64,000 bases of DNA from Acidimicrobiia bacterium (GTDB lineage: Bacteria > Actinomycetota > Acidimicrobiia > Spongiisociales > Spongiisociaceae): NCBI GenBank assembly GCA_011523635.1, contig WTGI01000013.1, forward strand, positions 17,177-81,176, written 5' to 3'. The notes under the pieces are model-generated. The model saw only the letters and a program-made list of their open reading frames with translations, ran no database searches and was not told the DNA's origin. Positions 388 to 58,220 of the stretch are shown here, one piece after another; the first letter of the stretch is position 1; the number at the start of each line of letters is the position of its first letter. Both the position numbers and the translations under genes were made by a program.

Positions 388-2186
388 TGACTGCTTACCG
401 TTCCCACTTCGCCGATGAGCTCGGACCCGATCAGCTGGATCAGCATGTAAAGGTGGCCGGCTGGGTGGCTCGGGTCAGGGACCTGGGTGGCATCTCGTTC
501 TTCGACCTGAGGGACGGGCGGGGGATAGTGCAGGTGGTGGTCGACCCGGCGGTGGTCCCATCGGCATCGGACCTCCGCATGGAGTACTGCGTCCGGGTCG
601 AGGGCACGCTCCGCCGGCGGCCGGCGGGGACCGAGAACCCCGACCTTCCCACCGGGGACTTCGAGGTGGAAGCCGGGGTGCTCGAGGTGTTGAGCCGGGC
701 GGCCCCGCTCCCCTTCATGATCGACGACCGTTCCCACTCCGAGGAGCGGATCCGGCTCGAGTATCGCTATCTCGATCTGCGCCGCCCCCGCATGGCCGCA
801 AATCTGCGAGCCCGTTCCAGGTGCATCAGCGCCATCCGGCGTACCCTTGACCACCTGGGCTTCCTGGATGTGGAGACTCCCACGCTCGTCAACTCGACGC
901 CCGAGGGAGCCCGGGACTTCCTGGTGCCGAGCCGGCTGCGGCCCGGCCGGTTCTATGCCCTGCCCCAAAGCCCCCAACTCTTCAAGCAGTTGCTCATGGT
1001 GGCGGGCGTCGAGCGTTACTACCAGATCGCCCGTTGCTACCGCGACGAGGACACGCGGGCCGACCGCCAGATCGAGTTCACCCAGTTGGACCTGGAGGGA
1101 TCGTTCTGGGAACGCGAGGACGTCTTCGCCGCCATCGAGCGGGTGGTGGCGGCCGTGGTGCGAGACCTGCGCGGCATCGAACTCCCCCTACCCCTACCCA
1201 GGATCACCTACGACGAGGCGCTGGCCCGCTACGGCACCGACAAGCCCGATCTGCGGTTCGGCATGGACGTGACCGAGCTGTCGGATGCGTTCTCGGGCAC
1301 CGGCTTCCGCGGCTTCGGCGGCGCTCTCGACGCGGGGGGAGTGGTCCGGGGCATCAACGCAGGGCCGATGAGTCCCTCCCGGGCGGAACTGGACGGTCTG
1401 GTGGGCCGGGCCAGGGAATTGGGCGCAGCCGGCCTGGTCTGGGCCGTGGTCAACGAAGACGGCGGTTGGCGGTCGCCCGTGGCCAAGTTCCTGGACGGCG
1501 CCGAGATGGCGGAGGCGACCCGGATACTGGACGCATCGCCGGGCGACTTGTTGCTGCTGGTGGCCGGCGGGGCTGCCATGGCCTCCTCGGTGCTGGGCGC
1601 GATCCGTCTGGAACTGGGCCGGCCCGGTAGCCACGAGGAACTGCGTTTCGTCTGGATAGTGGACTTCCCGGTCTTCGAGACGACCGAGGGTGGTGACCTG
1701 GTCCCCTCCCACCATCCCTTCACCGCCCCGGTCTCGGTGGAGGAGATGCGCGAGCGGCCGGAGACGGCGGTGGCCCAGGCTTACGATCTCGTGCTCAACG
1801 GGTCCGAGCTGGGCTCCGGCTCCGTGCGGATCCATGACCCCGATACGCAGAGGGCCGTGTTCGAGACCCTTGGCATCTCCGATGAGGAGGCCGAGTCCCG
1901 TTTCGGCTGGTTCCTGGAGGCCCTTGCTTACGGGACACCACCCCATGCCGGTTTCGCGGTGGGGATCGATCGCCTGGTAGCCATCCTCCAGAACGAGGCC
2001 AGTATCAGGGAGGTGATCCCGTTCCCCAAGACCCAGAGCGGCGCCGATCCGCTCACGACCGCCCCCACGCGGGTGGTAGATGACCAGTTGGAGGAACTCG
2101 GTCTGGATCTCACGGCCGCCGCCAAGGCGGCCCTGGCTACTACGGACCAACCCCCGGCGGGGCCTTCCGACCCCGCCGGCTCCTGA
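387..2186 (+). CDS. aspS: Aspartyl-tRNA synthetase
   Basis: 610-aa ORF with class II AspRS motifs (FFDLRDG, QSPQLFKQLLMVAG, GLDR). A GGAGG Shine-Dalgarno sits 8 nt upstream of ATG 387. The track ORF begins at GTG 354, but the ATG at 387 is preferred. Confidence 0.93.
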   Translation: MTAYRSHFADELGPDQLDQHVKVAGWVARVRDLGGISFFDLRDGRGIVQVVVDPAVVPSASDLRMEYCVRVEGTLRRRPAGTENPDLPTGDFEVEAGVLEVLSRAAPLPFMIDDRSHSEERIRLEYRYLDLRRPRMAANLRARSRCISAIRRTLDHLGFLDVETPTLVNSTPEGARDFLVPSRLRPGRFYALPQSPQLFKQLLMVAGVERYYQIARCYRDEDTRADRQIEFTQLDLEGSFWEREDVFAAIERVVAAVVRDLRGIELPLPLPRITYDEALARYGTDKPDLRFGMDVTELSDAFSGTGFRGFGGALDAGGVVRGINAGPMSPSRAELDGLVGRARELGAAGLVWAVVNEDGGWRSPVAKFLDGAEMAEATRILDASPGDLLLLVAGGAAMASSVLGAIRLELGRPGSHEELRFVWIVDFPVFETTEGGDLVPSHHPFTAPVSVEEMRERPETAVAQAYDLVLNGSELGSGSVRIHDPDTQRAVFETLGISDEEAESRFGWFLEALAYGTPPHAGFAVGIDRLVAILQNEASIREVIPFPKTQSGADPLTTAPTRVVDDQLEELGLDLTAAAKAALATTDQPPAGPSDPAGS

Positions 2187-2198
2187 CCGGTAACCGGG

Positions 2199-3569
2199 AT
2201 GCCGTCCGAGCCCGACCTGTTCTCGGCCGGCCGGGAGAGACGCCGGCGCCGGGTGGCCCCGCTGGCCGACCGCATGCGTCCCAGGTCCTTGCCAGAGGTG
2301 GTGGGCCAGCCCGATCTGCTGGGGAAGGGCGCCGCCTTCCGCGCCATGGTCGAATCCGGCCGGCTGGTGTCCGTCCTCCTCTTCGGACCGCCGGGTACCG
2401 GGAAGACGACCCTGGCCCGGCTCATGGCCTCCGAAAGCGACGCGGCCTTCGAGCAGCTGACCGCGTCCGCTCACGGGGTGCGTGACGTCCGCCGCGTCCT
2501 GGAAGGAGCCGAGCGCCGGCTCGGGGAGGACGGGAATCGAACGGTGCTCTTCCTGGACGAGATCCATCGCTTCAACAAGGCTCAGCAGGACGCCCTCCTG
2601 CCCGGGGTCGAGAACGGCACCGTCATACTCGTCGGCGCTACCACCGAGAACCCGTTCTTCGAGGTCAACTCCCCCCTGATCAGCCGATGCACCCTGTTCC
2701 GCCTGGTTCCGCTCTCCGCTGCCGAAGTGGTCGGGCTGCTCGAGCGGGCTCTGACCGACCGTGAGAGGGGGCTGGGCGCCGCAGGGATGGCGATCGACCC
2801 GGCGGCGGCCGAAGCCCTGGCCGGTCGGGCGGGAGGAGACGCCCGACTGTCGCTCAACGTCCTGGAACTGGCCGCCATCGTGGCCGGCGGCGGAGGACGG
2901 ACCACCATCACGTACCACGATGTGGAGGAGGCCCTCCAGCGCCGCATCATCCGCTACGACAAGAAGGGCGACCAGCACTACGACGTCATCTCGGCCTTCA
3001 TAAAGTCGATGCGGGGCTCCGACCCCGACGCCGCCCTCTACTGGCTCCACACCATGCTGTGGGCCGGGGAGGACCCCGAGTTCGTGGCACGACGGATGGT
3101 CATCTTCGCCTCCGAGGACGTCGGCATGGCCGACCCGGACGCTCTGGTCCAGGCGGTTGCGGCCGCCCACGCTCTGGCGATGGTCGGCCTGCCCGAGGCG
3201 GCCTACAACCTGTCGCAGGCCGCGATCTACCTGGCCGCCGCCCCCAAGTCCGACTCGGTGAAGCGATCGATGGGTGCGACCCGGCGGGCGGTCGACGAGA
3301 CCCCCGCCGCAACCGTCCCCGCCCACCTGCGCTCCACCGGCGGACGGCTGGTGTCGTCCCAGGTGGACGGCATGCCGGCGGGCTACGTGGATCCCCACAC
3401 GGGACCGGGACACCTCGTTCCCCAGCCTTACCTACCGGAGCAGATGGAGGGGAGGATCCTCTACCGGCCCACCCACCAGGGCCGGGAGGCGGGCGTCGCC
3501 GAGCGGCTCGAGGAATGGGACAAGGTCATGGGCCGTCCCGCGCGCAGTACCAACCCGGGCCAGAGCTAG
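2199..3569 (+). CDS. rarA: Replication-associated recombination protein A (AAA+ ATPase RarA/MgsA)
   Basis: Walker A motif LFGPPGTGKTTLARL and an MgsA C-terminal domain; 456 aa. Confidence 0.9.
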   Translation: MPSEPDLFSAGRERRRRRVAPLADRMRPRSLPEVVGQPDLLGKGAAFRAMVESGRLVSVLLFGPPGTGKTTLARLMASESDAAFEQLTASAHGVRDVRRVLEGAERRLGEDGNRTVLFLDEIHRFNKAQQDALLPGVENGTVILVGATTENPFFEVNSPLISRCTLFRLVPLSAAEVVGLLERALTDRERGLGAAGMAIDPAAAEALAGRAGGDARLSLNVLELAAIVAGGGGRTTITYHDVEEALQRRIIRYDKKGDQHYDVISAFIKSMRGSDPDAALYWLHTMLWAGEDPEFVARRMVIFASEDVGMADPDALVQAVAAAHALAMVGLPEAAYNLSQAAIYLAAAPKSDSVKRSMGATRRAVDETPAATVPAHLRSTGGRLVSSQVDGMPAGYVDPHTGPGHLVPQPYLPEQMEGRILYRPTHQGREAGVAERLEEWDKVMGRPARSTNPGQS

Positions 3570-3609
3570 CCGGTGGTTGGTGGTCAGTGGTTTTCAGCAT
3601 AATCTAACA

Positions 3610-3649
3610 TCAACTAGCAACTAGGAACTAGCAACTAGAAACTAGGAAC
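3610..3649. repeat. Tandem heptamer repeat (CAACTAG-like) x5.5 in the rarA-alaS intergenic region
   Basis: Direct read: CAACTAG CAACTAG GAACTAG CAACTAG AAACTAG GAACT. Stop codons are present in all six frames. Confidence 0.8.
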
Positions 3650-3668
3650 TGGCGCTAACCTGCATCGG

Positions 3669-6290
3669 ATGCGAGCCAATGCCATCCGGCGCGCCTTCAC
3701 CGACTTCTTCGCCGAGCGCCGCCACGTTGTCCGGCCGTCCGCGTCGTTGATCCCCACCGATCCCACCTTGCTGGTGACCAACGCCGGAATGGTCCCGTTC
3801 AAGCCCTATTTCCTGGGCGAGGAGGAGCCGCCCTGGCCCCGGGCGGTCAGCATCCAGAAGTGCGTGCGGACGGTCGACATCGACATCATCGGCACCACTG
3901 CTCGCCACCTGACCATGTTCGAGATGCTCGGGAACTTCTCGTTCGGTGATTACTTCAAGGAACTGGCCATTCGCTACGCCTTCGACTTCGTCACCGGGCC
4001 GCTCGGTCTGGATCCCGAACGTCTCTGGTACACGGTCTACAAGACCGATGACGAGGCGGAGGAAATCTGGATCGACTCGATAGGGGTTCCACCTGATCGG
4101 GTGCAGCGGGGCGGTAAGGACAACTTCTGGCAGATGGGCATTCCCGGTCCGTGCGGTCCGTGCTCGGAGATCTTCATCGACCGGGGCCCTGCCTACGGGC
4201 CTGACGGAGGCCCGATCGGTGGTGGCGAGGACCGGTTCGTGGAGCTCTGGAACCTGGTCTTCATGCAGAATATCCAGGATGAGCCCTATCACGTTGTCGG
4301 CGAAATCCCCGCCAAGGGGATCGATACCGGTACCGGGCTGGAGCGTCTGGCCATGATCCTCCAGGGAGTGGACACCCTCTTCGAGGCCGACTGCGTCCAT
4401 GACGTGCTGGCGGCCGCGTCGGGCGCCCTGGGCCGGACCTATGGAGAGGATGAACGGGTCGACGTGACGCTTCGCCTGCTCGCCGACCACGCCCGCGCAT
4501 CCACGTTCCTGATCGGCGACCGCGCCCTACCCGGAAACGAAGGCCGGGGTTACGTGGTGAGGCGCCTGATCCGTCGCGCGGTCCGCCACGCCTGGCAGCT
4601 GGGTAGCGAGAGCCTCATCATGCCCCGCCTGGCCGGGGTGACCGCCGACATCATGGAGGACGCCTACCCGGAACTGAAGGCCGACCTCGACTTCATCCAG
4701 CATGTCTTCGAGCGGGAGGAGTCCCGATTCCGGCGCACCCTCGCGGCCGGCACCCAGATGCTGGACGAGGCGCTGGTGGGTTCGGAGCCGGGCGGTGCCG
4801 TGTCCGGCGCTCTGGCCTTCAAGCTGCATGACACGTACGGCTTCCCGATCGACCTCACCCGGGAGATCGTGGAGGAGCAGCAGCGCGCGGTGGACCTGGA
4901 CGGATTCGAGGCCGAGATGGCCGCCCAGCGGGCCCGGGCCAAGGCCGCCTGGAAGGGGGGTGCGGAGGCGGTCCGCGTCGAGTCCTACAAGCGGATCCTC
5001 GACACCATCGGCCCCACCGACTTCCTGGGCTACATCAAGGATGATACGCCCGCCCTGATCCTCGCCATCCTCCGTGAGGGGGAGCTGGTGGAGAGGGCCG
5101 AGGAGGGTCAGGAGGTGGAAGTCTTCCTGGACAGGTCGCCCTTCTATGCCGAGGCCGGCGGGCAGGTGGGTGACGTCGGGCTGATCGAGTCGGTTACCGG
5201 ACGGATCGAGGTGGGCGACACGCAGGCGGCCGTGACCGGCTTGCACGGCCACCACGGCAGGGTGACGAGCGGCTCCGTCCAGACCGGCCAGGAAGTGGAT
5301 GCCCGTATCGACAGCCCCAGGCGAGACCGCATCCGCAAGGCCCACACCGGCACGCACCTTCTTCATTGGGCGCTCCGGGAAGTCATAGGGGGGCACGCCA
5401 ACCAGGCCGGTTCGCTGGTCCAGGACGGGCGCCTCCGGTTTGATTTCAACCACTACACGGCGGTGCCCGCCGAAGAACTCGGCGAGGTGGAGCAGTTGGT
5501 CAACCAGCGGGTAGTGGACAACCACCGGGTGGGCCTGCTCGAGACGTCCAAGGACGAGGCCGAGGCGATGGGGGCGCTGGCCTTCTTCGGCGACAAGTAC
5601 GGTGAGCGGGTGCGGGTGGTCTCGGTGGGCGACTTCTCGGTCGAGTTCTGCGGAGGCACCCATGTGGGCAGCTCGGCGGAGGTAGGGCCGCTGCTGGTCA
5701 CCTCCGAGTCCTCCATCGGATCGAACGTGCGCAGGGTGGAGGCTCTGACCGGTATGGCGGCCTACTCCCATGCCAGGGAAGCAAGGGAGCAACTGACCGA
5801 CGTAGGTCGTTTCCTCGGCCTGTCGATGTCGGAGGTTCCGGCAGGAGTGCGCCGGCTGGCCGAGCGGGCCGACGCCCTCCAGAGCGAATTGGATCAGCGC
5901 CGCCGGCAGGAGAGGACTGCGATCGCCGCCGATCTGGCCGGCGCCGCCCGGCGTACCGGGGATACCTCGTGGCTGGTGGCCGAACTCGACGATCATGCCC
6001 CGGTGGCGTTGCGCCAGGTGGGAGCGCAGGTCAGGGACCGGCTCGGGTCCGGTGTCGTGGTACTGGGTAGCCGGGCTGGCGGCAAGGGGGCGCTGGTCGG
6101 CCTGGCGACCCGTGATCTCGTCGACCAGGGTATTTCGGTGGCCGACCTGGTGCTGGTGGGCGCCAAGCTCCTCGGCGGAGGCGGCAGTCGCGATCCCGAA
6201 CTGTCACAGGCAGGCGGACCCAGGGGCGACAAGGTGGGCGAGGCTCTGGACGCGATTCGGGAGGCGGTGGCACGCCGTCTGAGTGCCTGA
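3669..6290 (+). CDS. alaS: Alanyl-tRNA synthetase
   Basis: 873-aa ORF with class II AlaRS editing and catalytic motifs, including the HTGTHLLH zinc-binding motif. Confidence 0.95.
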   Translation: MRANAIRRAFTDFFAERRHVVRPSASLIPTDPTLLVTNAGMVPFKPYFLGEEEPPWPRAVSIQKCVRTVDIDIIGTTARHLTMFEMLGNFSFGDYFKELAIRYAFDFVTGPLGLDPERLWYTVYKTDDEAEEIWIDSIGVPPDRVQRGGKDNFWQMGIPGPCGPCSEIFIDRGPAYGPDGGPIGGGEDRFVELWNLVFMQNIQDEPYHVVGEIPAKGIDTGTGLERLAMILQGVDTLFEADCVHDVLAAASGALGRTYGEDERVDVTLRLLADHARASTFLIGDRALPGNEGRGYVVRRLIRRAVRHAWQLGSESLIMPRLAGVTADIMEDAYPELKADLDFIQHVFEREESRFRRTLAAGTQMLDEALVGSEPGGAVSGALAFKLHDTYGFPIDLTREIVEEQQRAVDLDGFEAEMAAQRARAKAAWKGGAEAVRVESYKRILDTIGPTDFLGYIKDDTPALILAILREGELVERAEEGQEVEVFLDRSPFYAEAGGQVGDVGLIESVTGRIEVGDTQAAVTGLHGHHGRVTSGSVQTGQEVDARIDSPRRDRIRKAHTGTHLLHWALREVIGGHANQAGSLVQDGRLRFDFNHYTAVPAEELGEVEQLVNQRVVDNHRVGLLETSKDEAEAMGALAFFGDKYGERVRVVSVGDFSVEFCGGTHVGSSAEVGPLLVTSESSIGSNVRRVEALTGMAAYSHAREAREQLTDVGRFLGLSMSEVPAGVRRLAERADALQSELDQRRRQERTAIAADLAGAARRTGDTSWLVAELDDHAPVALRQVGAQVRDRLGSGVVVLGSRAGGKGALVGLATRDLVDQGISVADLVLVGAKLLGGGGSRDPELSQAGGPRGDKVGEALDAIREAVARRLSA

Positions 6291-42432: not shown

Positions 42433-43482
42433 ATGTCTACCCGGCGTAGGGTGGTGCTCGAGAATGCCCCGCTGCCTTCTCCCTTTCCCGAGGGCTGGTA
42501 CTTCGTCACGAGCCGTAGGGCACTGCTGGAAGCCGGGATCATCGAAAAGACATGGATGGGAGAGAACATCGTCGCCTGGAGCGACGAGAACGGCACCGTG
42601 TGCGTCGCCGGCGCCTACTGCCCGCATCTGGGCGCCGATCTGGGACCGACCGCAGGAGGTCGCATCTGTGAGGGGCGGCTGGTCTGCCCGTTCCATGGCT
42701 ACGAGTTCGACGCCACCGGGCAGTGCGTGGCCACCCCCTATTCCCCGCCGCCCACGACCGCGAGGTTACGCGTGTTCGAGACGCAGGAGATCGCGGGCCT
42801 GATCTTCGCCTGGTGGGGGATCGGGGGACGGGTGCCGCAATGGAGTCTGCCGGAGGATGAACCGGATCAGGCCGGCTGGACCGGTCTCAAGATCAGAACT
42901 CTCCGATTTCCCGGCCATCCCCAAGAGACGACGGAGAACTCGGTCGACGTGGGCCACCTGCGCTACGTCCACGGCTATGACAGCGTGGACCGCGTTGGGC
43001 GGGTGTCCGTGGACGGGCCGCGTCTGGAGAGCGACTTCGACTTCAGGCGCACCCGGAAGATTGCCGGACCACTGACCTCCACCTTCGAAGTCTCTGCCCG
43101 CACGCGAATCTTCGGGTTGGGTTACTCGTTCGTGGAGATCCGCGAACGCTCGATCGGGATGGATCTGCGCCTGTGGGTGCTGGCCACGCCGGTCGACGGT
43201 TCGCTCATCGACCTGTCGCTGGTTTCGCAGGTGCGGGAGATACGCAAGCCGGGGCGGTGGATCGCGGGCCTGGGGTTCCTGCCGGTGAAGTGGCGAGCCC
43301 CCATCATGAACCGGTTCATCGCGTCCCAGCAGTACCGGGATGTCCAGCAGGATGAGATCATCTGGAGCCGCAAGCAGTACCGATCCCGCCCGCTCCTGTG
43401 CCGTTCCGACGGCGAGATCATGCCGTTCCGGCGCTACTGCGCCCAGTTCTATCCCGACCCGGCCGATCTGGAGACTCCCTAG
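42433..43482 (+). CDS. Rieske [2Fe-2S] non-heme iron oxygenase (KshA/PAO/Neverland-like single-component alpha subunit)
   Basis: Rieske CPHLGADL...CPFHGYEF motif, and a mononuclear Fe motif E-x3-D-x2-H-x4-H (ENSVDVGHLRYVHG). Confidence 0.8.
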   Translation: MSTRRRVVLENAPLPSPFPEGWYFVTSRRALLEAGIIEKTWMGENIVAWSDENGTVCVAGAYCPHLGADLGPTAGGRICEGRLVCPFHGYEFDATGQCVATPYSPPPTTARLRVFETQEIAGLIFAWWGIGGRVPQWSLPEDEPDQAGWTGLKIRTLRFPGHPQETTENSVDVGHLRYVHGYDSVDRVGRVSVDGPRLESDFDFRRTRKIAGPLTSTFEVSARTRIFGLGYSFVEIRERSIGMDLRLWVLATPVDGSLIDLSLVSQVREIRKPGRWIAGLGFLPVKWRAPIMNRFIASQQYRDVQQDEIIWSRKQYRSRPLLCRSDGEIMPFRRYCAQFYPDPADLETP

Positions 43483-43505: not shown

Positions 43506-45533
43506 TTACACCGGCAGTTCGTGCCTCTGCTCGGCGACGACGAACTTCAGCTTGTTGTTCACCGACGACGACGGGAAGGAGCTGATCTTCAGCTTGTAGT
43601 TGGCGGGAGAGATCTCGAGCCTGAAATGGTGAACGAGCAGCAGCAGATGGATCGCCAGGTGCAGGGATGTCCACCGGGACCCCAAACACGTATGGGTACC
43701 CAGACCGTACGGCGCGTAAGACGACCCGAGGTGCTCCTTGCGCGGAGGCAGGTAGCGATCGATGTCGAACGAGAAGGGATCGGGGAAGACGTCCTCCATG
43801 TAGTGCGTGGCCGTTTGGGCAATCAGAACCCGCGCTCCCTCCGGCAGCTCGTATCCCTCGACGGCGCACGTATTCATCACGTTTCGATATGAGGCCGGCA
43901 CGATCGGGTAGAGACGCAGGCACTCCATGATGAACCGGCGTGTGATGTCGATCCCTGGCCCGGTGAGTTCGTCACGATCCGGCGTCCCCTTGGCGAACAG
44001 GGCGTCTGCCTCATTGCTAATACTCTCGTGGAACTCGGGCTGCGACAACATCGCGTAGATGATTAGGCCGAGTTGATCACCGACATACATGCTTGCGATC
44101 AGCGCCGCCGAGAGCACGAAGGGCAGGTTCGACTCCGGGAGGAACTGCCGATCGCTCGCGTGCATGCTCAGCAGGTCATCGGCGAGGTCGCGAGGGCACC
44201 CAGCCCGCTGGGCGGGTGTGTGGCTACTCAGGACTCGTTCCATGACCTCTCCGACCAGCTTCGCCCGGCGCTTCATTGCGGGCGTACGCAGCATCAACTT
44301 GGGCAGGTTCCCGATTACATGGGTCTGCAGGGCTCTTTCCTTGAATTTGTGCAGGTCCGCGACGACATCCTGAGTATCGATGCTGACCATGGCGGGCGAC
44401 AACGTTGAATTGACCAACTGCCTGCACATCGTCTTTGCAGGGAGCTTGTCACCGATAGACCAAGCCGCCATGTAGGCCCGGGCGGTGGAGTAGCACTCAT
44501 CCAGCCGAGTCTCCAACCTGGTGCGGGAATAGGCCGGTTGCATGGACTTGCGGTACCGGAAATGATCCGCACCGTCCAGGGTGGGCAGGATTCCTGATCC
44601 TCCGTATACCTTTTCGAAATCCTCCAGATAATCTCTGGATCTCAGGTACATCCGCCCATGCCGATGTGCCCAGTGATTCATCTCGGGGCCGGCGAGCAAA
44701 ATCATCGGGCCGGTCAAGGGCGGGCGGAGCTCGAACACCGGTCCATATTCTTTGGCAAGCTCTGCAAAGAAAGCCGGTAAATTACCTTGGCGAGCGGGCC
44801 GGCTGCGCAGCAACCTACGAAGCGGGACAACCGGAATCGGCTTAGCGAAAGCGGAAGACCTGAACAACGACACAGACAGGTTATGGCCAACTGCTGCGGC
44901 GATGGACCTGCCTATCAGGTCCATCTTGGAGATGAACTCGACACGCTTCTCCGACTCTTCATCGAGTTCGAATATGAATCGTAGGACATCACATGTATTG
45001 ATAAGACAGATTATGATGATATCTCTGGGGTCCGGAATCTCGTTAGCAAAGATTGCTCTGCTGAGACGTGTCTTTACGAAGTCAACGGCAGTACCTTCTC
45101 CAGATGTGGCGTAAGGACCCTTCTGCCATGCGCCCCGGGCCAGCGACCAGAAATCGCCGTCATGGTGCCGGAGTATCTCCAGGTCGACCAGCCGGTCAAG
45201 GGTCAAGTCGATAATCGATTCCGCGCGCGGGGCGAGACGTTCGATCCAGTACTGGGCGTCTCGTTGAACCGGTTCGGCCGCGATTTGCTCGAGGATAGGA
45301 TCTAGGGCAGGATCGCCCGTTTCCGTTCGGTCCAGGAGGATCAACGAATCCATATCCGTATCGATACGGGATAGGAGCGACAGCTCTCCCAGCACGCCTC
45401 CGATAACGGCACAGTTCAAATCCCACCCAGGAACCTGCCGGAAGTAGCCACTCTCCTCGTTGAGGAGTGTGAGGACGAGTTCGTCGACCAAACTGAGCTT
45501 CTGAGTGACCGCACTGTCGGCGGTTAGAGTCAT
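43506..45533 (-). CDS. Cytochrome P450 with N-terminal GPP34/GOLPH3-like domain (fusion protein)
   Basis: N-terminal ~220 aa match the GPP34 pattern (LSLVDELVLTLLNEESG...AVIGGVLGELSLLSRI). The C-terminus carries P450 EXXR (ECLR), PERF-like DPFSFDIDRY and a heme loop YGLGTHTCLG. This part of the gene appears visibly AT-richer by eye (not computed). Confidence 0.75.
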   Translation of the reverse strand: MTLTADSAVTQKLSLVDELVLTLLNEESGYFRQVPGWDLNCAVIGGVLGELSLLSRIDTDMDSLILLDRTETGDPALDPILEQIAAEPVQRDAQYWIERLAPRAESIIDLTLDRLVDLEILRHHDGDFWSLARGAWQKGPYATSGEGTAVDFVKTRLSRAIFANEIPDPRDIIIICLINTCDVLRFIFELDEESEKRVEFISKMDLIGRSIAAAVGHNLSVSLFRSSAFAKPIPVVPLRRLLRSRPARQGNLPAFFAELAKEYGPVFELRPPLTGPMILLAGPEMNHWAHRHGRMYLRSRDYLEDFEKVYGGSGILPTLDGADHFRYRKSMQPAYSRTRLETRLDECYSTARAYMAAWSIGDKLPAKTMCRQLVNSTLSPAMVSIDTQDVVADLHKFKERALQTHVIGNLPKLMLRTPAMKRRAKLVGEVMERVLSSHTPAQRAGCPRDLADDLLSMHASDRQFLPESNLPFVLSAALIASMYVGDQLGLIIYAMLSQPEFHESISNEADALFAKGTPDRDELTGPGIDITRRFIMECLRLYPIVPASYRNVMNTCAVEGYELPEGARVLIAQTATHYMEDVFPDPFSFDIDRYLPPRKEHLGSSYAPYGLGTHTCLGSRWTSLHLAIHLLLLVHHFRLEISPANYKLKISSFPSSSVNNKLKFVVAEQRHELPV

Positions 45534-46526: not shown

Positions 46527-46600
46527 GGCCCCGTCGTCCAGCCGGCCTAGGACGCTGGCCTTTCAAGCCAGAAACGCGGGTTCGAATCCCGTCGGGGCCA
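46527..46600 (+). tRNA. tRNA-Glu (anticodon UUC)
   Basis: Manual cloverleaf: acceptor GGCCCCG/CGGGGCC, anticodon stem CTGGC/GCCAG, loop CTTTCAA, T-loop TTCGAAT, discriminator A. No encoded CCA. Confidence 0.85.
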
Positions 46601-46735
46601 CTGTTTCTCTTCGGGGGCTGCGGCGTGTCGTCGCGGCTGCGACCGAGCGGAACGCGTTGCCCGAGCTACGGCCGCGCTCACGAATCGGGCTGCTACCGTC
46701 TCCTGCGCCCCACCCGGCCCTTTCCTGAGGTGTAG

Positions 46736-47932
46736 ATGACCGGGGACAGACACTTCTACGTCGAGACGTTCGGCTCGGTCCGGTTGAGTTCGTTCCGGCT
46801 CGGCCGATCGCCCTTTGCCGACCGGTACGTGACGGATCAGACCGTCTTCGGCCTGTACTGCGGTCGCCTGTATCCCATCAAGGCGTACCCTGACGAGGAC
46901 CCCGTTCCCCAGTACTGGAAGTTGCGGAACGGGGTGATGCTGTACGACGTCCCCGAAAAGCCCCTCGAGATCATCGGCCCGGAAGCCGCCAGGATGCTCG
47001 AGAGGGTCCTCACCTGCAGGGTCGGCACGCTCGCAGTGGGTCGGGCTCGGTACGGAATCGCCTGCAATGAGGACGGCACCGTTCTGATGGACGGTGTGAT
47101 CATGCGCCTCGCGCCGGATCGCTTCTGGTATGTGAAGGCGAACGGTGAATTCGAGGGTTGGCTCACGGCGCACGCCATGGGGCTCGATGCCGAAGTCTCC
47201 GATCCGGATTCGAGAGTCCTCCAGATTCAGGGACCGAGTTCGCTCGACGTGCTGGACGCGGCGATCGGCGGTGGACTATCGACCGACTTCAGGTACTTCC
47301 ACGCCGGATTCTTCGAAATCGACGGACAGACACTGTGGGTGTCCCGGACCGGATGGACGGGCGAGGCGGGGATCGAGATCTACTGCAACAGCGGTCCGGA
47401 GGCGACGGATCATGACGCCCTCTGGGATTACCTGCTCGCGTGCGGTGAGCCCTTCGGCATGGAGTTCAGCTCGTCTTCATCGATGGGCATACGGCGCATC
47501 GAGGCCGGCATCCTGGACAACGGCACGGATATCGAGCCGGACCTGACCCCGTACGGCGCCGGCCTCGGGAATTTTGTTGCACTCGACAAGGGGGACTTCA
47601 TCGGACGCTCCGCGCTGGCGAGGGCCGATCGCAGCCAACTCCTGTTCGGCCTGGTTTGTGCTACCGCAGCACCGGACGCCGGGATGCAGGTGCACCTCGA
47701 GAACGGCCCGGTCGGGCATATCACGATCGGCACCTGGTCGCCCTCGCTGGAGGCAGGAGTCGGCTACGTGCGCTTCGACCGGCCTCTGCCGGGCGGCGAC
47801 TGGCTCGGCAAGACGGTCTCGTTGATCGACCATAAGGGAGCTCCTCACCCGGCGACCGTTGACACCCTGCCGTTCGTGGATAAGGAGAAGCGGTTGCCCC
47901 GCGCCGAATGGAGTGGCGGACGGTCCGGTTGA
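46736..47932 (+). CDS. Aminomethyltransferase (GcvT) family folate-binding protein
   Basis: 398 aa with a GcvT fold (…VSRTGWTGEAGIEIY…). A GAGGTG SD precedes ATG 46736. Confidence 0.7.
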   Translation: MTGDRHFYVETFGSVRLSSFRLGRSPFADRYVTDQTVFGLYCGRLYPIKAYPDEDPVPQYWKLRNGVMLYDVPEKPLEIIGPEAARMLERVLTCRVGTLAVGRARYGIACNEDGTVLMDGVIMRLAPDRFWYVKANGEFEGWLTAHAMGLDAEVSDPDSRVLQIQGPSSLDVLDAAIGGGLSTDFRYFHAGFFEIDGQTLWVSRTGWTGEAGIEIYCNSGPEATDHDALWDYLLACGEPFGMEFSSSSSMGIRRIEAGILDNGTDIEPDLTPYGAGLGNFVALDKGDFIGRSALARADRSQLLFGLVCATAAPDAGMQVHLENGPVGHITIGTWSPSLEAGVGYVRFDRPLPGGDWLGKTVSLIDHKGAPHPATVDTLPFVDKEKRLPRAEWSGGRSG

Positions 47933-47959
47933 CACCGGCCTGCCGATACCTGGTATCTT

Positions 47960-48031
47960 GCGGGCCTGATCGGGAGTGGTGTAATCGGCAGCACGACAGG
48001 TTCTGGCCCTGTTAGTAGGGGTTCGAGTCCT
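47960..48031 (+). tRNA. tRNA-Gln (anticodon CUG)
   Basis: Manual cloverleaf: acceptor TCGGGAG/CTCCCGA, D-stem GTGT/GCAC, anticodon stem ACAGG/CCTGT, loop TTCTGGC, T-loop TTCGAGT. Confidence 0.85.
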
Positions 48032-48068
48032 CTCTCCCGAGCGGTTGGTATCATTCGCCACACGCAGT

Positions 48069-48141
48069 GGCCCCGTCGTCTAGGGGCCTAGGACACCGCC
48101 CTCTCAAGGCGGAGACGCCAGTTCAAATCTGGTCGGGGCTG
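48069..48141 (+). tRNA. tRNA-Glu (anticodon CUC)
   Basis: Manual cloverleaf parallel to E. coli tRNA-Glu: acceptor GGCCCCG/CGGGGCT (G1-U72), anticodon stem CCGCC/GGCGG, loop CTCTCAA, T-loop TTCAAAT. Confidence 0.85.
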
Positions 48142-48209
48142 CGATAGAACGACCCGGTCGGGCTCATCACCGTTGGTGAGGGGCTCCGGTCGGGTCTTTC
48201 CTTGTCCGG

Positions 48210-52949: not shown

Positions 52950-53825
52950 GTGTATCCATCCGCGTTCGACTACTCGGCGCCCGGCAGTCTTGAGGAGGCC
53001 CTGGCTACCCTGGCTGAATTGGGTGACGAGGGCCGGATTCTCGCCGGAGGCCAGAGCCTCATCCCCATGATGAAGCTCCGGCTGGCGGCGCCGGGCCACC
53101 TCGTGGACATCAACCGCGTCAGCGAGCTGGCACACATAAGCGAGTCCAACGGCCACCTGGCGGTGGGGGCGCTGGCCCGTCACGCCGACGTGGCCTCATC
53201 GGAGACGGTGAGCCGCTACAACCACACGGTGGCCTCCGCGGCGCCTTGGGTGTCCGATCCGCTGGTGCGGAACCGGGGAACCCTGTGCGGCTCGGTGGCC
53301 CACTGCGACCCCGAGGGCGACTGGAACTCGGTCATGCTGGCGGTGGGCGCCTCGGTGGTGGCCCGCTCGTCGTCGGGGGAGCGGGTGATCCCGATCACCG
53401 AATTCGTGGTCGACTTCTTCACCAACTCCCTCAATCCCGGCGAGATGGTCACGGAAGTGCGGATCCCGGCGTACCGGGGTCCGGCCGGGGGCGCGTACCT
53501 CAAGCTGGAGCGCAAGGTCGGCGACTACGCCACTGTGGGGGTGGCCACCCATCTCGTGCTCGACGGTTCGGGGAACGTGGCGGAGGCGGGCCTGGGCCTG
53601 ACCGCCGTTTACGGCCACAACCTGAAGGTCACGGAGGCGGAGGAGATGATGGCCGGGCAGACCCCCGGACCGGAAATGTTCGCCGAGGCGGCGGCCATCG
53701 CGGCCCGCGCCTGCGATCCCGATGACAACGTTCGGGGTCCGGCCGAGTACAAGCGGGCCGTGGTAGCCGAGTACACCAGGCGCGGGTTCGCCCAGGCGCT
53801 GGCCCAGGCAGGAGGGGAGGGCTGA
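52950..53825 (+). CDS. coxM: Carbon monoxide dehydrogenase medium (FAD-binding) subunit
   Basis: FAD_binding_5/CO_deh_flav_C domains (ILAGGQSLIPMMKLRL). Confidence 0.85.
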   Translation: MYPSAFDYSAPGSLEEALATLAELGDEGRILAGGQSLIPMMKLRLAAPGHLVDINRVSELAHISESNGHLAVGALARHADVASSETVSRYNHTVASAAPWVSDPLVRNRGTLCGSVAHCDPEGDWNSVMLAVGASVVARSSSGERVIPITEFVVDFFTNSLNPGEMVTEVRIPAYRGPAGGAYLKLERKVGDYATVGVATHLVLDGSGNVAEAGLGLTAVYGHNLKVTEAEEMMAGQTPGPEMFAEAAAIAARACDPDDNVRGPAEYKRAVVAEYTRRGFAQALAQAGGEG

Positions 53826-54286
53826 TGCAGATCACCGTCAACGTAAACGGCGCCAGCGAGACCCGGGATGTAGAACCCCGGCGCCTGCTGGTCGACTTCA
53901 TCCGCTCGGACGCGGGCCTTACCGGGACCCACATCGGCTGCGACACCTCCTCCTGCGGTGCTTGCACCGTCCTCCTGGACGGCCGGCCGGTCAAGTCTTG
54001 CACGGTGCTGGCGGTCCAGGCCGACGGCGGCGAGGTGAAGACCGTAGAGGGCCTGGCCGAGGGTGGCGAGCTCCATCCGGTCCAGGCCGCTTTCAAGGAG
54101 CACCACGGCCTGCAGTGCGGCTTCTGCACACCGGGAATGATGCTGGTGGGCAGCGCTTTGCTGGAAGAGAATCCGAATCCGACCGACGAGGAGGTCCGCT
54201 GGGCCATATCCGGCAACATCTGCCGCTGCACCGGCTACATGAACATCGTGACTGCCATCCAGGCCGCAGGCGGAGAGGGGAGCTGA
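53825..54286 (+). CDS. coxS: Carbon monoxide dehydrogenase small [2Fe-2S] subunit
   Basis: Two 2Fe-2S motifs (CDTSSCGACTV, CGFCTPGMM...CRCTGY). Confidence 0.9.
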   Translation: MQITVNVNGASETRDVEPRRLLVDFIRSDAGLTGTHIGCDTSSCGACTVLLDGRPVKSCTVLAVQADGGEVKTVEGLAEGGELHPVQAAFKEHHGLQCGFCTPGMMLVGSALLEENPNPTDEEVRWAISGNICRCTGYMNIVTAIQAAGGEGS

Positions 54287-54287
54287 C

Positions 54288-56660
<2,373 letters not shown>

Positions 56661-56707
56661 GAGGGTCAACCCGGTCCCGTCTTCTTTAGCACCGTCCTAA
56701 GGATGCG

Positions 56708-57595
56708 ATGAGCATCCTCCGGCAGGCAGCCCGGCTGCACGAGGAGGGACGGGCGTTCGCGCTGGCCACCGTCACGTGGTCGCGCGGGCCGTCGTCGGGC
56801 AAGGGCGGTTCCAAGGCGATAATCCACCCGGACGGCCGGGTGGAGGGTTGGCTGGGAGGCGCCTGCGCCTCCCCGACAGTGGTTCGCCACGCCCTGGAGG
56901 CGCTGGGGGATGGCGAGGCGCGGGTGCTGATGCTGGGCGAGGGCGACCGTAGGCCCGGCGTGACGGACGTGGCTATGGCCTGTGACAGCGAAGGAGCGAT
57001 GGAGGTGTTCGTGGAACCGGTCCTCCCCTCTCCTCACCTGATCGTTGTCGGATCGTCCCCGATGACCGGGACCCTGCGGCGGATAGCCGAAGTGGTCGGG
57101 TGGCGGGCGGAGGTCGTCACCGAGGTGGGGGATGTCGGCCGGGCCGGCGAGCGGTCCTACGTAGTCGTCGCTACCCAGGGCCACTTCGACGAGCCCGCCC
57201 TGGAAGCCGCTCTCGCTACGCCTGCCTCCTACGTGGGCCTGGTGGCCTCCCAGAAGAGGGCCTCGTCGGTACTCGCCTGGCTCAGGGAGCGGGGAGCGGG
57301 AGAAGGTGCCCTGGCCAGAGTGCATGCTCCGGCCGGCGTCGATCTGGGGTCGACCACCCACGAGGAGATGGCCGTGTCGATCATGGCCGAGCTGGTCGCC
57401 TTCAAGGCAGCCGGGGCCGGCGCGCAAGGGGTCTGGGTGGTGATACCGGCCCAGGCGGTCGATCCGGTGTGCGGGATGCTGGTGGACGTGGCGACGGCCG
57501 GCTTCGTCAGCCACCACGCCGGAGAAGAGGTCTACTTCTGCGCCGCCGGCTGCCGCCGCGCCTACGAGGCCGATCCCTCCGCATACACCGGTTAG
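56708..57595 (+). CDS. XdhC/CoxF-family maturation protein fused to a C-terminal YHS (TRASH-like) metal-binding domain
   Basis: XdhC_CoxI N-terminal region, an XdhC Rossmann-like domain, and a C-terminal DPVCGMLVD...HHAGEEVYFCAAGCRRAYEADP YHS motif. Confidence 0.75.
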   Translation: MSILRQAARLHEEGRAFALATVTWSRGPSSGKGGSKAIIHPDGRVEGWLGGACASPTVVRHALEALGDGEARVLMLGEGDRRPGVTDVAMACDSEGAMEVFVEPVLPSPHLIVVGSSPMTGTLRRIAEVVGWRAEVVTEVGDVGRAGERSYVVVATQGHFDEPALEAALATPASYVGLVASQKRASSVLAWLRERGAGEGALARVHAPAGVDLGSTTHEEMAVSIMAELVAFKAAGAGAQGVWVVIPAQAVDPVCGMLVDVATAGFVSHHAGEEVYFCAAGCRRAYEADPSAYTG

Positions 57596-57683
57596 CGCTG
57601 GTCCCGATGTATCCTCCTCCCTGGTGAGTCAATCGCTCGGGCCAAGTGACAGCTAACCGGCGAGTCGGGGAAGGGGGAATGCG

Positions 57684-58220
57684 GTGAAGATGCGCCAGGT
57701 CATCGTTGGCGGTCTAGGACTGCTCGTTCTGGTGGGGATGGCGGCATGCCAGGGAGAGACGTCCTCCGCGGTGGGACAGGAGGCTGTTGCTTCGATGTCG
57801 GGCACCGACGGTGGCGCACTAGGCACCGTCGTCCTCACGGAAGGACCAAACGGTGTCCTGATCTCGGCTGACGTGGCGGGGCTTTCCCCCGGAGCGCACG
57901 GATTCCACATCCATGAGGTGGGGGCTTGCACGCCCGATTTCTCAGCGGCGGGCGGGCACTTTGCTCCCGGCGGGGAAGGTCATGGCTTCCAGCACGAGGA
58001 CGGGTCCCACGCCGGAGACCTGCCGAACCTCTACGCGGGTGCGGACGGAGTTGCGCGGGCCGACGTCTTCACGAACAAGATCACGCTGGCGGCCGATGCT
58101 GACACGTCGATCTTCGATGCGGACGGCTCCGCCATCATCATCCACGCCAGACCCGACAGCTACGGCCCCGACCCCGGCGCGGGCGACCGCGTCGCCTGCG
58201 GCATCATCAAGCGCACATAG
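57684..58220 (+). CDS. sodC: Cu/Zn superoxide dismutase, lipoprotein
   Basis: Lipobox LVGMAAC; GFHIHEVGAC and GGHFAPGG motifs; metal-ligand histidines. Confidence 0.88.
   Translation: MKMRQVIVGGLGLLVLVGMAACQGETSSAVGQEAVASMSGTDGGALGTVVLTEGPNGVLISADVAGLSPGAHGFHIHEVGACTPDFSAAGGHFAPGGEGHGFQHEDGSHAGDLPNLYAGADGVARADVFTNKITLAADADTSIFDADGSAIIIHARPDSYGPDPGAGDRVACGIIKRT

Follow-up and report, generated by a model that had tools for sequence, protein, structure and literature searches.

A predicted four-gene coxM-coxS-coxL-coxF operon from an Acidimicrobiia bacterium and the YHS domain fused to its CoxF maturation factor

A cluster of carbon monoxide (CO) dehydrogenase genes was analyzed within a 64,000-nucleotide stretch of DNA from an Acidimicrobiia bacterium (GenBank assembly GCA_011523635.1, contig WTGI01000013.1, positions 17,177 to 81,176 of the forward strand; this whole stretch is referred to below as the window). 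The locus is predicted to be a four-gene coxM-coxS-coxL-coxF operon, encoding a form-I [MoCu] CO dehydrogenase (CODH) together with a CoxF maturation factor that carries a YHS/TRASH domain at its C-terminus. The features of the operon, in window coordinates, were as follows:

52950..53825, + strand: coxM, FAD-binding medium subunit, 291 aa; GTG start, with AGGAGGTGA before the start (Shine-Dalgarno)
53825..54286, + strand: coxS, [2Fe-2S] small subunit, 153 aa
54288..56660, + strand: coxL, form-I Mo-Cu CO dehydrogenase large subunit (predicted), 790 aa
55392..55415, + strand: CoxL active-site loop VAYRCSFR, residues 369-376; by alignment, C373 is the equivalent of the Cu ligand
56708..57595, + strand: coxF-type accessory gene (XdhC N-domain, XdhC Rossmann domain and C-terminal YHS/TRASH domain), 295 aa; ATG behind AGGA
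56738..56929, + strand: XdhC_CoxI N-terminal domain, residues 11-74; PF02625, 62.3 bits (cutoff 24.3), with the invariant GGxC53 motif inside
57038..57394, + strand: XdhC Rossmann domain, residues 111-229; PF13478 (XdhC_C), 89.5 bits (cutoff 29.7)
57458..57589, + strand: YHS/TRASH domain, residues 251-294; PF04945, D252-P-V-C255-G-M257 … Y276-F-C278-A-A-G-C282

The genes coxM and coxS lie directly upstream of coxL, with overlapping or abutting boundaries, and coxF starts 47 nt past the coxL stop with the AGGA motif ahead of it. All four genes are intact, and their GC content at third codon positions (GC3) is 0.84-0.90; together with the sodC gene that follows, the five + strand genes in 52950-58220 show GC3 values of 0.78-0.90, a codon bias of the coding type. 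A scan for promoters and terminators between 52.6 and 58.9 kb returned nothing exceeding shuffle expectation.

The identity of the structural subunits was evaluated by comparison with domain families, equivalog models and solved structures, as well as with the proteins of Oligotropha (Afipia) carboxidovorans OM5, the biochemical reference, in which the genes are arranged as coxMSLDEFG(…I) on pHCG3. CoxM matched the Pfam families FAD_binding_5 (157 bits) and CO_deh_flav_C (67 bits) and was 34% identical to its O. carboxidovorans counterpart (E 4e-47); CoxS matched Fer2_2 (113 bits) and Fer2, with 56% identity to O. carboxidovorans CoxS. CoxL, composed of three Pfam domains of the xanthine-oxidase (XOR) family, scored 1144.7 bits against the NCBIfam model TIGR02416 ('aerobic CO dehydrogenase large subunit'; cutoff 991.15), and the runner-up models, glyceraldehyde dehydrogenase and group-5 CODH, were far under their own cutoffs. 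Among solved structures, the best match of CoxL was the Mycobacterium smegmatis enzyme 8UEM (1013 bits), followed by 1FFV (979) and 1N5W (906), all of them Mo-Cu CODHs. In a global alignment with O. carboxidovorans CoxL (53% identity), the residues V384-R391 corresponded to residues 369-376 of the window protein (VAYRCSFR), and the Mo/Cu-site residues were all kept (Q225, C373 and E744, equivalent to Q240, C388 and E763 of O. carboxidovorans), as were QGQGH 510-514 and GTY 548-550, with one difference only (O. carboxidovorans G569, replaced by A551). On all sequence criteria applied, CoxL classifies as a bona fide form-I enzyme. This agrees with a preliminary description of the locus, which had called CoxL form-I on account of the VAYRCSFR loop: both the TIGR02416 score and the loop at residues 369-376 bear out the call, and the other form-I residues about which it had asked are present. 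The CoxL phylogeny that it had proposed was run as a neighbour-joining tree, in which the window CoxL fell with Acidimicrobiia CoxL, joining three loci for which the available sequence shows nothing beyond the minimal layout (two are on short or truncated contigs). In a metagenome variant from the same organism (L002, 6268-8639), coxL was found in pieces of 766 and 96 aa, an apparent frameshift near the 3' end that may stem from an error in assembly or mark a strain-level pseudogene.

The protein encoded by the accessory gene contains XdhC_CoxI and XdhC_C, both above their Pfam cutoffs, followed by the C-terminal YHS domain. It was nearer to O. carboxidovorans CoxF (153 bits, 37% identity, E 2e-44) than to CoxI (62 bits), and its scores against the NCBIfam XdhC equivalogs (xanthine dehydrogenase, AOR) were all far under the cutoffs. 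The AlphaFold2 model of the protein was confident throughout (predicted local distance difference test 90.5; predicted template modelling score 0.80), and its top Foldseek matches were the XdhC-like structures 2WE8/2WE7 (E 1e-15) and 3ON5 (E 5e-9); this whole-chain comparison matched the XdhC body only, the YHS domain of ~45 residues being too small to register. A motif at Cys92, invariant in all the aligned CoxF proteins, aligns with the 'putative Cu motif' MCPSHGTM of O. carboxidovorans, which in our own interpretation may be no Cu-specific site. The protein is assigned as a CoxF orthologue, and not as CoxI or a generic XdhC.

The C-terminal domain shows the spacing C-x22-C-x3-C, which fits the TRASH signature (C-x19-22-C-x3-C), and has in common with the YHS/TRASH domains of Cu-ATPases, adenylyl cyclase and phenol hydroxylase the signature D-P-x-C-G-M … Y-x-F-C-x3-C; unlike these, it sits on an XdhC-type cofactor chaperone. 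The YHS model was matched by 54 of 55 CoxF orthologues (61-95% identity; best E 4.7e-13) and by 30 of 30 cross-phylum CoxF C-terminal domains (best E 8.9e-18), 27 of which also matched the TRASH model, and relatives 93-96% identical to the window CoxF have precomputed PF04945 matches. The residues Asp252, Cys255, Met257, Cys278 and Cys282 were invariant in the 55 orthologues, and the Cys triad was kept in 66 of 70 CoxF-YHS domains. Since both orthologues and cross-phylum domains match YHS, the call is secured although the window copy itself lies under the Pfam gathering cutoff, and the homology of the domain to YHS is clear despite that score. The recognition of an XdhC/CoxF-type protein with a C-terminal YHS/TRASH motif in the preliminary description is therefore upheld by Pfam, by similarity to CoxF and by the family-wide YHS evidence; of the Pfam domains that it had expected, the two XdhC families were found above cutoff, whereas YHS was detected below it. 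In a subset of actinobacterial CoxF-YHS proteins (L017, L020-L025, L049 and L080), the sequence ends in a conserved tail, (K/R)ETRC or EARC, which adds one more Cys, the fourth, downstream of YHS; the window CoxF has no such tail.

The distribution of the fusion was assessed in a scan of species representatives, based on the best 80 of more than 571 matches to a query that included the YHS domain; the loci were annotated with seed proteins and a hidden Markov model (HMM) of YHS. The domain was contiguous with CoxF in 66 of the 80 loci, a share biased upward by the YHS-containing query, and in a few long-read metagenome-assembled genomes (MAGs) the YHS domain of CoxF lay in a shifted frame. The Actinomycetota with YHS-bearing CoxF include Mycobacteriaceae, Rhodococcus, Arthrobacter and Streptosporangiaceae, and the fusion was also found in Chloroflexota, Acidobacteriota, Gemmatimonadota, Bacteroidota, Methylomirabilota/Rokubacteria, Neomarinimicrobiota and a Thermoplasmata archaeon. 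Plasmid records with YHS-bearing CoxF came from Thermomicrobium, Paraburkholderia, Caballeronia, Deinococcus and the haloarchaeon Natronorubrum: among 228 plasmid records with XdhC-like matches, only five cover the C-terminus, and all five matches lie near a form-I coxL of the same record (three by annotation and two, from Caballeronia, by coordinates). More generally, the neighbouring CoxL was form-I in 57 of 57 evaluable CoxF-YHS loci, with the loop AYRCSFR in 46 and AYACSFR in 11. The latter variant, also seen in the solved M. smegmatis enzyme 8UEM, is typical of clusters of the Mycobacteriaceae/Rhodococcus type (L079, L081, Mycobacterium shimoidei), arranged as coxM-S-L(AYACSFR)-F-D-G-E; their CoxF also carries YHS/TRASH, but they differ from the window in the loop and in having coxD, coxG and coxE directly after coxF.

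Thirteen of the 14 YHS-less loci were Alpha/Gammaproteobacterial-type clusters, arranged as coxMSLDEF(G) where the contig shows it, as in Oligotropha/Afipia, and the remaining one (L090, Candidatus Angelobacter) had no coxL nearby. A standalone YHS protein that would replace the missing domain in the proteobacterial clusters was considered and rejected, as no YHS frame was found: a six-frame HMM search (segments of at least 30 aa) detected no separate small YHS protein within ~10 kb of the YHS-less clusters, no YHS-encoding frame was present in ~19 kb around O. carboxidovorans CoxF, and none was found outside CoxF in 94 loci. In the CoxL tree, a rough neighbour-joining one, the YHS-less proteobacterial clade was nested within YHS-bearing lineages, from which we infer a probable single loss of the domain in that clade. 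CoxF, which is linked to Cu in the model organism, is thus fused to YHS in almost every lineage outside the Alpha/Gammaproteobacteria, suggesting that the textbook CoxF of O. carboxidovorans is the atypical form. The fusion is already named in databases ('XdhC/CoxF family maturation factor/YHS domain-containing protein' in IMG, 'TRASH domain-containing protein' in UniRef and 'YHS domain-containing protein' in NCBI), and a full-text literature search, which covered open-access papers only and is weak evidence, found no paper discussing an XdhC/CoxF-YHS fusion.

Additional CODH-like genes were observed near some of these operons. In five actinomycetotal loci (L016, L020, L022, L023 and L057), a divergent second coxM-S-L set lies ~1-5 kb upstream of the form-I genes on the opposite strand; the loop of its CoxL reads AYSCSFR, with Ser at the Arg/Ala position, and a coxD-like gene comes next. 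Located next to the canonical form-I operon, this set may represent a separate class of CODH paralogues. In one relative of the window (L093, CoxF 84% identical), the form-I operon is immediately preceded by a second XOR-family M-S-L cluster (1496-5138), with a large subunit of 765 aa, that has no counterpart in the window.

Regarding the genes that accompany CODH clusters elsewhere, no homologues of CoxD, CoxE, CoxG or CoxI, searched with seeds from O. carboxidovorans, Paraburkholderia, Deinococcus and Natronorubrum, were detected in the 64-kb window (tblastn E <= 0.01; phmmer E <= 1e-5). Sibling contigs of the same organism extend the sequence by ~10 kb past the 3' end and ~8 kb past the 5' end, and they contained neither CoxD/E/G/I nor MoxR, VWA or SRPBCC genes. 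The absence of coxD/E/G/I is real over ~82 kb around the operon, so the single accessory gene that had been noticed at first sight stands across the window, and the possibility of a coxDEFG set just outside it was not borne out. Two relatives, with CoxF 94% and 84% identical and contigs of 1.66 and 4.39 Mb, keep coxMSL-coxF(YHS) with the same flanking genes and likewise have no coxD/E/G/I within 10 kb, and the four-gene synteny is kept in relatives down to ~60% CoxF identity. In O. carboxidovorans, by contrast, coxD, coxE and coxG adjoin the cluster.

The layout of the window is uncommon among the loci that could be evaluated. Flanks of 8 kb or more on either side were available for 33 CoxF-YHS loci; coxD and coxE were both present in 22 of these, and coxF was the sole accessory gene in only four, namely Thermomicrobium roseum, one MAG from the Acidimicrobiia and the two relatives closest to the window described above. 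The YHS fusion is the common form of CoxF, and the minimal four-gene layout is a minority. The suggestion made in the preliminary description that the fusion is a 'compact solution' in place of coxDEG consequently finds no support, as the YHS-bearing CoxF is prevalent and usually coexists with coxD/E/G. The operon in the window is an ordinary one of a known kind, a form-I CODH accompanied by the usual CoxF with YHS, and in itself adds one more form-I CODH to those of the Acidimicrobiia.

The gene order of the window is identical to that on the megaplasmid of T. roseum DSM 5159 (NC_011961.1 555700-560530), which reads coxM-coxS-coxL(AYRCSFR)-XdhC with a C-terminal YHS; the T. roseum CoxF is 42% identical to that of the window, and its YHS motif is DPVCGM…YFFCCPAC. 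As in the window, there is no coxD/E/G near the form-I cluster (within ~9 kb), although T. roseum belongs to another phylum, its CoxL to another clade, and no sodC lies downstream. T. roseum oxidises CO, with the form-I genes trd_A0564-6 on the megaplasmid (Wu et al. 2009, PMC2615216), which indicates that the coxMSL-coxF(YHS) layout is functional, and its accessory genes, including coxG and coxE, are reported to lie in a separate chromosomal operon (Islam et al., PMC6776052). Local absence is therefore no proof of genomic absence. Of 30 Mo-CODH clusters surveyed, 24 included coxG, and for another four the gene lay at a different place in the genome (Kropp et al., PMC12202499). For the window organism, the likeliest source of CoxD (AAA+), CoxE (VWA) and CoxG (quinone/membrane coupling) is another part of its genome.

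The lack of coxD/E/G within ~82 kb could be read in two other ways. One is that the cluster is a remnant, or encodes a non-CO enzyme, as without these genes a CODH could not mature or couple to the respiratory chain; indeed, CoxD and CoxE are essential in O. carboxidovorans (PMC4240915), and CoxG is needed for efficient quinone coupling (PMC12202499). This is hard to reconcile with four intact genes of GC3 0.84-0.90 whose synteny is kept down to ~60% CoxF identity, with a CoxL that passes its equivalog model and keeps the catalytic residues, with CO oxidation by T. roseum under the same layout and with the frequent location of coxG elsewhere in genomes, so that a remnant or a non-CO enzyme is considered extremely improbable. 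The other is that this Acidimicrobiia clade, perhaps together with Thermomicrobium, has no dedicated maturation factor besides CoxF-YHS, the tethered Cu domain making CoxD and CoxE dispensable. If so, the four genes coxMSL-coxF(YHS) would suffice on their own as a module for making an active Mo-Cu CO dehydrogenase, and the minimal cluster would be attractive for heterologous expression of aerobic CODH; given that the accessory genes of T. roseum are reported elsewhere in its genome, such independence from CoxD and CoxE is quite unlikely.

With respect to the function of the fused domain, CoxF of O. carboxidovorans (280 aa) stops after the Rossmann domain, without the YHS domain present in the window protein. 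Mutants of O. carboxidovorans in coxE and coxF produce a CODH with sulfurated Mo and no Cu; CoxF has been proposed as the Cu supplier, on weak motifs, and also as a protector of the sulfurated Mo species (PMC4240915). In addition, the YHS domain of the adenylyl cyclase of the actinobacterium M. phlei mediates a Cu-specific activation, proposed to involve one Asp and three Cys (PMC4626032). We consider that the YHS domain is probably the Cu(I)-binding arm of CoxF, feeding the CuSMo site (probability about 0.6), because CoxF is genetically tied to Cu insertion by the O. carboxidovorans mutants, because the domain always occurs on CoxF beside a form-I CoxL and in no other frame, because Asp, Met and three Cys are conserved as a ligand set, and because an actinobacterial YHS domain can respond to copper. 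According to this proposal, the XdhC body (N-domain and Rossmann domain) would engage the molybdopterin-cytosine-dinucleotide cofactor and apo-CoxL; a linker of ~15 residues would tether the small treble-clef YHS/TRASH domain to that body; and the domain would capture cytoplasmic Cu(I) and deliver it to CoxL, at Cys373 and the sulfurated Mo centre, completing the CuSMoO2 cluster. The fusion provides domain-fusion evidence for the delivery of Cu to the CuSMo site by CoxF, a role long proposed and unproven.

Several observations weigh against a Cu-binding arm. Against PF04945, the window domain reached 22.9 bits when scored within the whole protein (E 8.4e-5) and 28.2 bits when scored alone (E 1.9e-6), in both cases under the 30.3-bit gathering cutoff. 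In the plasmid-borne CoxF of Deinococcus sp. AJ005 (L010, 7992-9053), the YHS domain is degenerate, with the first Cys replaced (SPVDGEE) and the C-x3-C shifted (YFTCANC), suggesting relaxed constraint on the domain where coxG, coxD and coxE are likewise part of the cluster. The CoxF of Alpha- and Gammaproteobacteria works without YHS, indicating that the domain is not universally required. Moreover, when structural relatives of the YHS domain were sought by sequence profile against the PDB, the closest solved ones were the C-terminus of the phenol hydroxylase component PhN (E 1e-6) and ribosomal L24e. The sites of both are presumably structural Zn sites.

These last two points would suit a structural Zn ribbon through which CoxF dimerises or docks onto CoxL or a different partner, with Cu arriving by another route, as proteobacterial CoxF still supports Cu insertion in the absence of YHS. 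Nevertheless, the invariant Asp and the invariant Met beside the first Cys (C-G-M) are consistent with a soft-metal site for Cu(I), the one experimental study of a YHS domain that was found showed Cu specificity, and, of the XdhC paralogues, the domain is confined to the one with a genetic link to Cu insertion; a Zn ribbon is thus regarded as unlikely. The Cu-dependent switch of the M. phlei adenylyl cyclase, together with the proposed protection of sulfurated Mo by CoxF, would also be compatible with a Cu sensor that gates the activity or release of CoxF, so that sulfurated Mo is exposed only when Cu is present, and that donates no Cu itself. A sensor fused to a stoichiometric chaperone is less parsimonious than a donor, and this role appears highly unlikely. 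The Cu(I)-binding arm remains the preferred reading of the domain.

Downstream of the operon, and 88 nt past coxF, a gene with its own Shine-Dalgarno sequence was found:

57684..58220, + strand: sodC, Cu/Zn superoxide dismutase (SOD), with an N-terminal signal/lipobox-like segment; Sod_Cu 133.5 bits

The N-terminus of the SOD is hydrophobic and ends in ...VGMAAC, which makes a lipoprotein plausible. The start of sodC differs among gene calls on sibling contigs (141, 176 or 178 aa), and the hydrophobic ...VGMAAC N-terminus, as in a secreted or lipoprotein SOD, occurs only in the longer forms. At this locus, the gene was present only in the species of the window (L001-L006, L094); it was not at the equivalent position in L092, L093 or L012-L015, nor in any other locus examined. 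Membership of sodC in the operon was rejected, as it is missing there in the two relatives with CoxF 94% and 84% identical. The adjacency of the Cu/Zn SOD gene is coincidental: the neighbouring gene pointed out in the preliminary description is indeed there, but its position beside coxF is not a conserved feature.

The remaining genes of the window were of the housekeeping kind (aspS, alaS, argS, ligA, gatCAB, gltX, glcDEF-like and others). A scan of the window with Rfam and for tRNAs returned nothing besides three tRNAs unrelated to the cox operon (Glu-TTC, Gln-CTG and Glu-CTC), located at 46527-48142 around a GCV_T-family gene (46736-47932). These lie just downstream of a stretch of low GC content at 44-46 kb (0.58, vs. 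~0.68 for the window), which contains a 675-aa open reading frame on the - strand (43506-45533) with an N-terminal GPP34 domain (GOLPH3-like, 98 bits) fused to a cytochrome P450 (124 bits), adjoined by a KshA-like Rieske oxygenase gene (42433-43482). The composition of this stretch suggests a horizontally acquired island.

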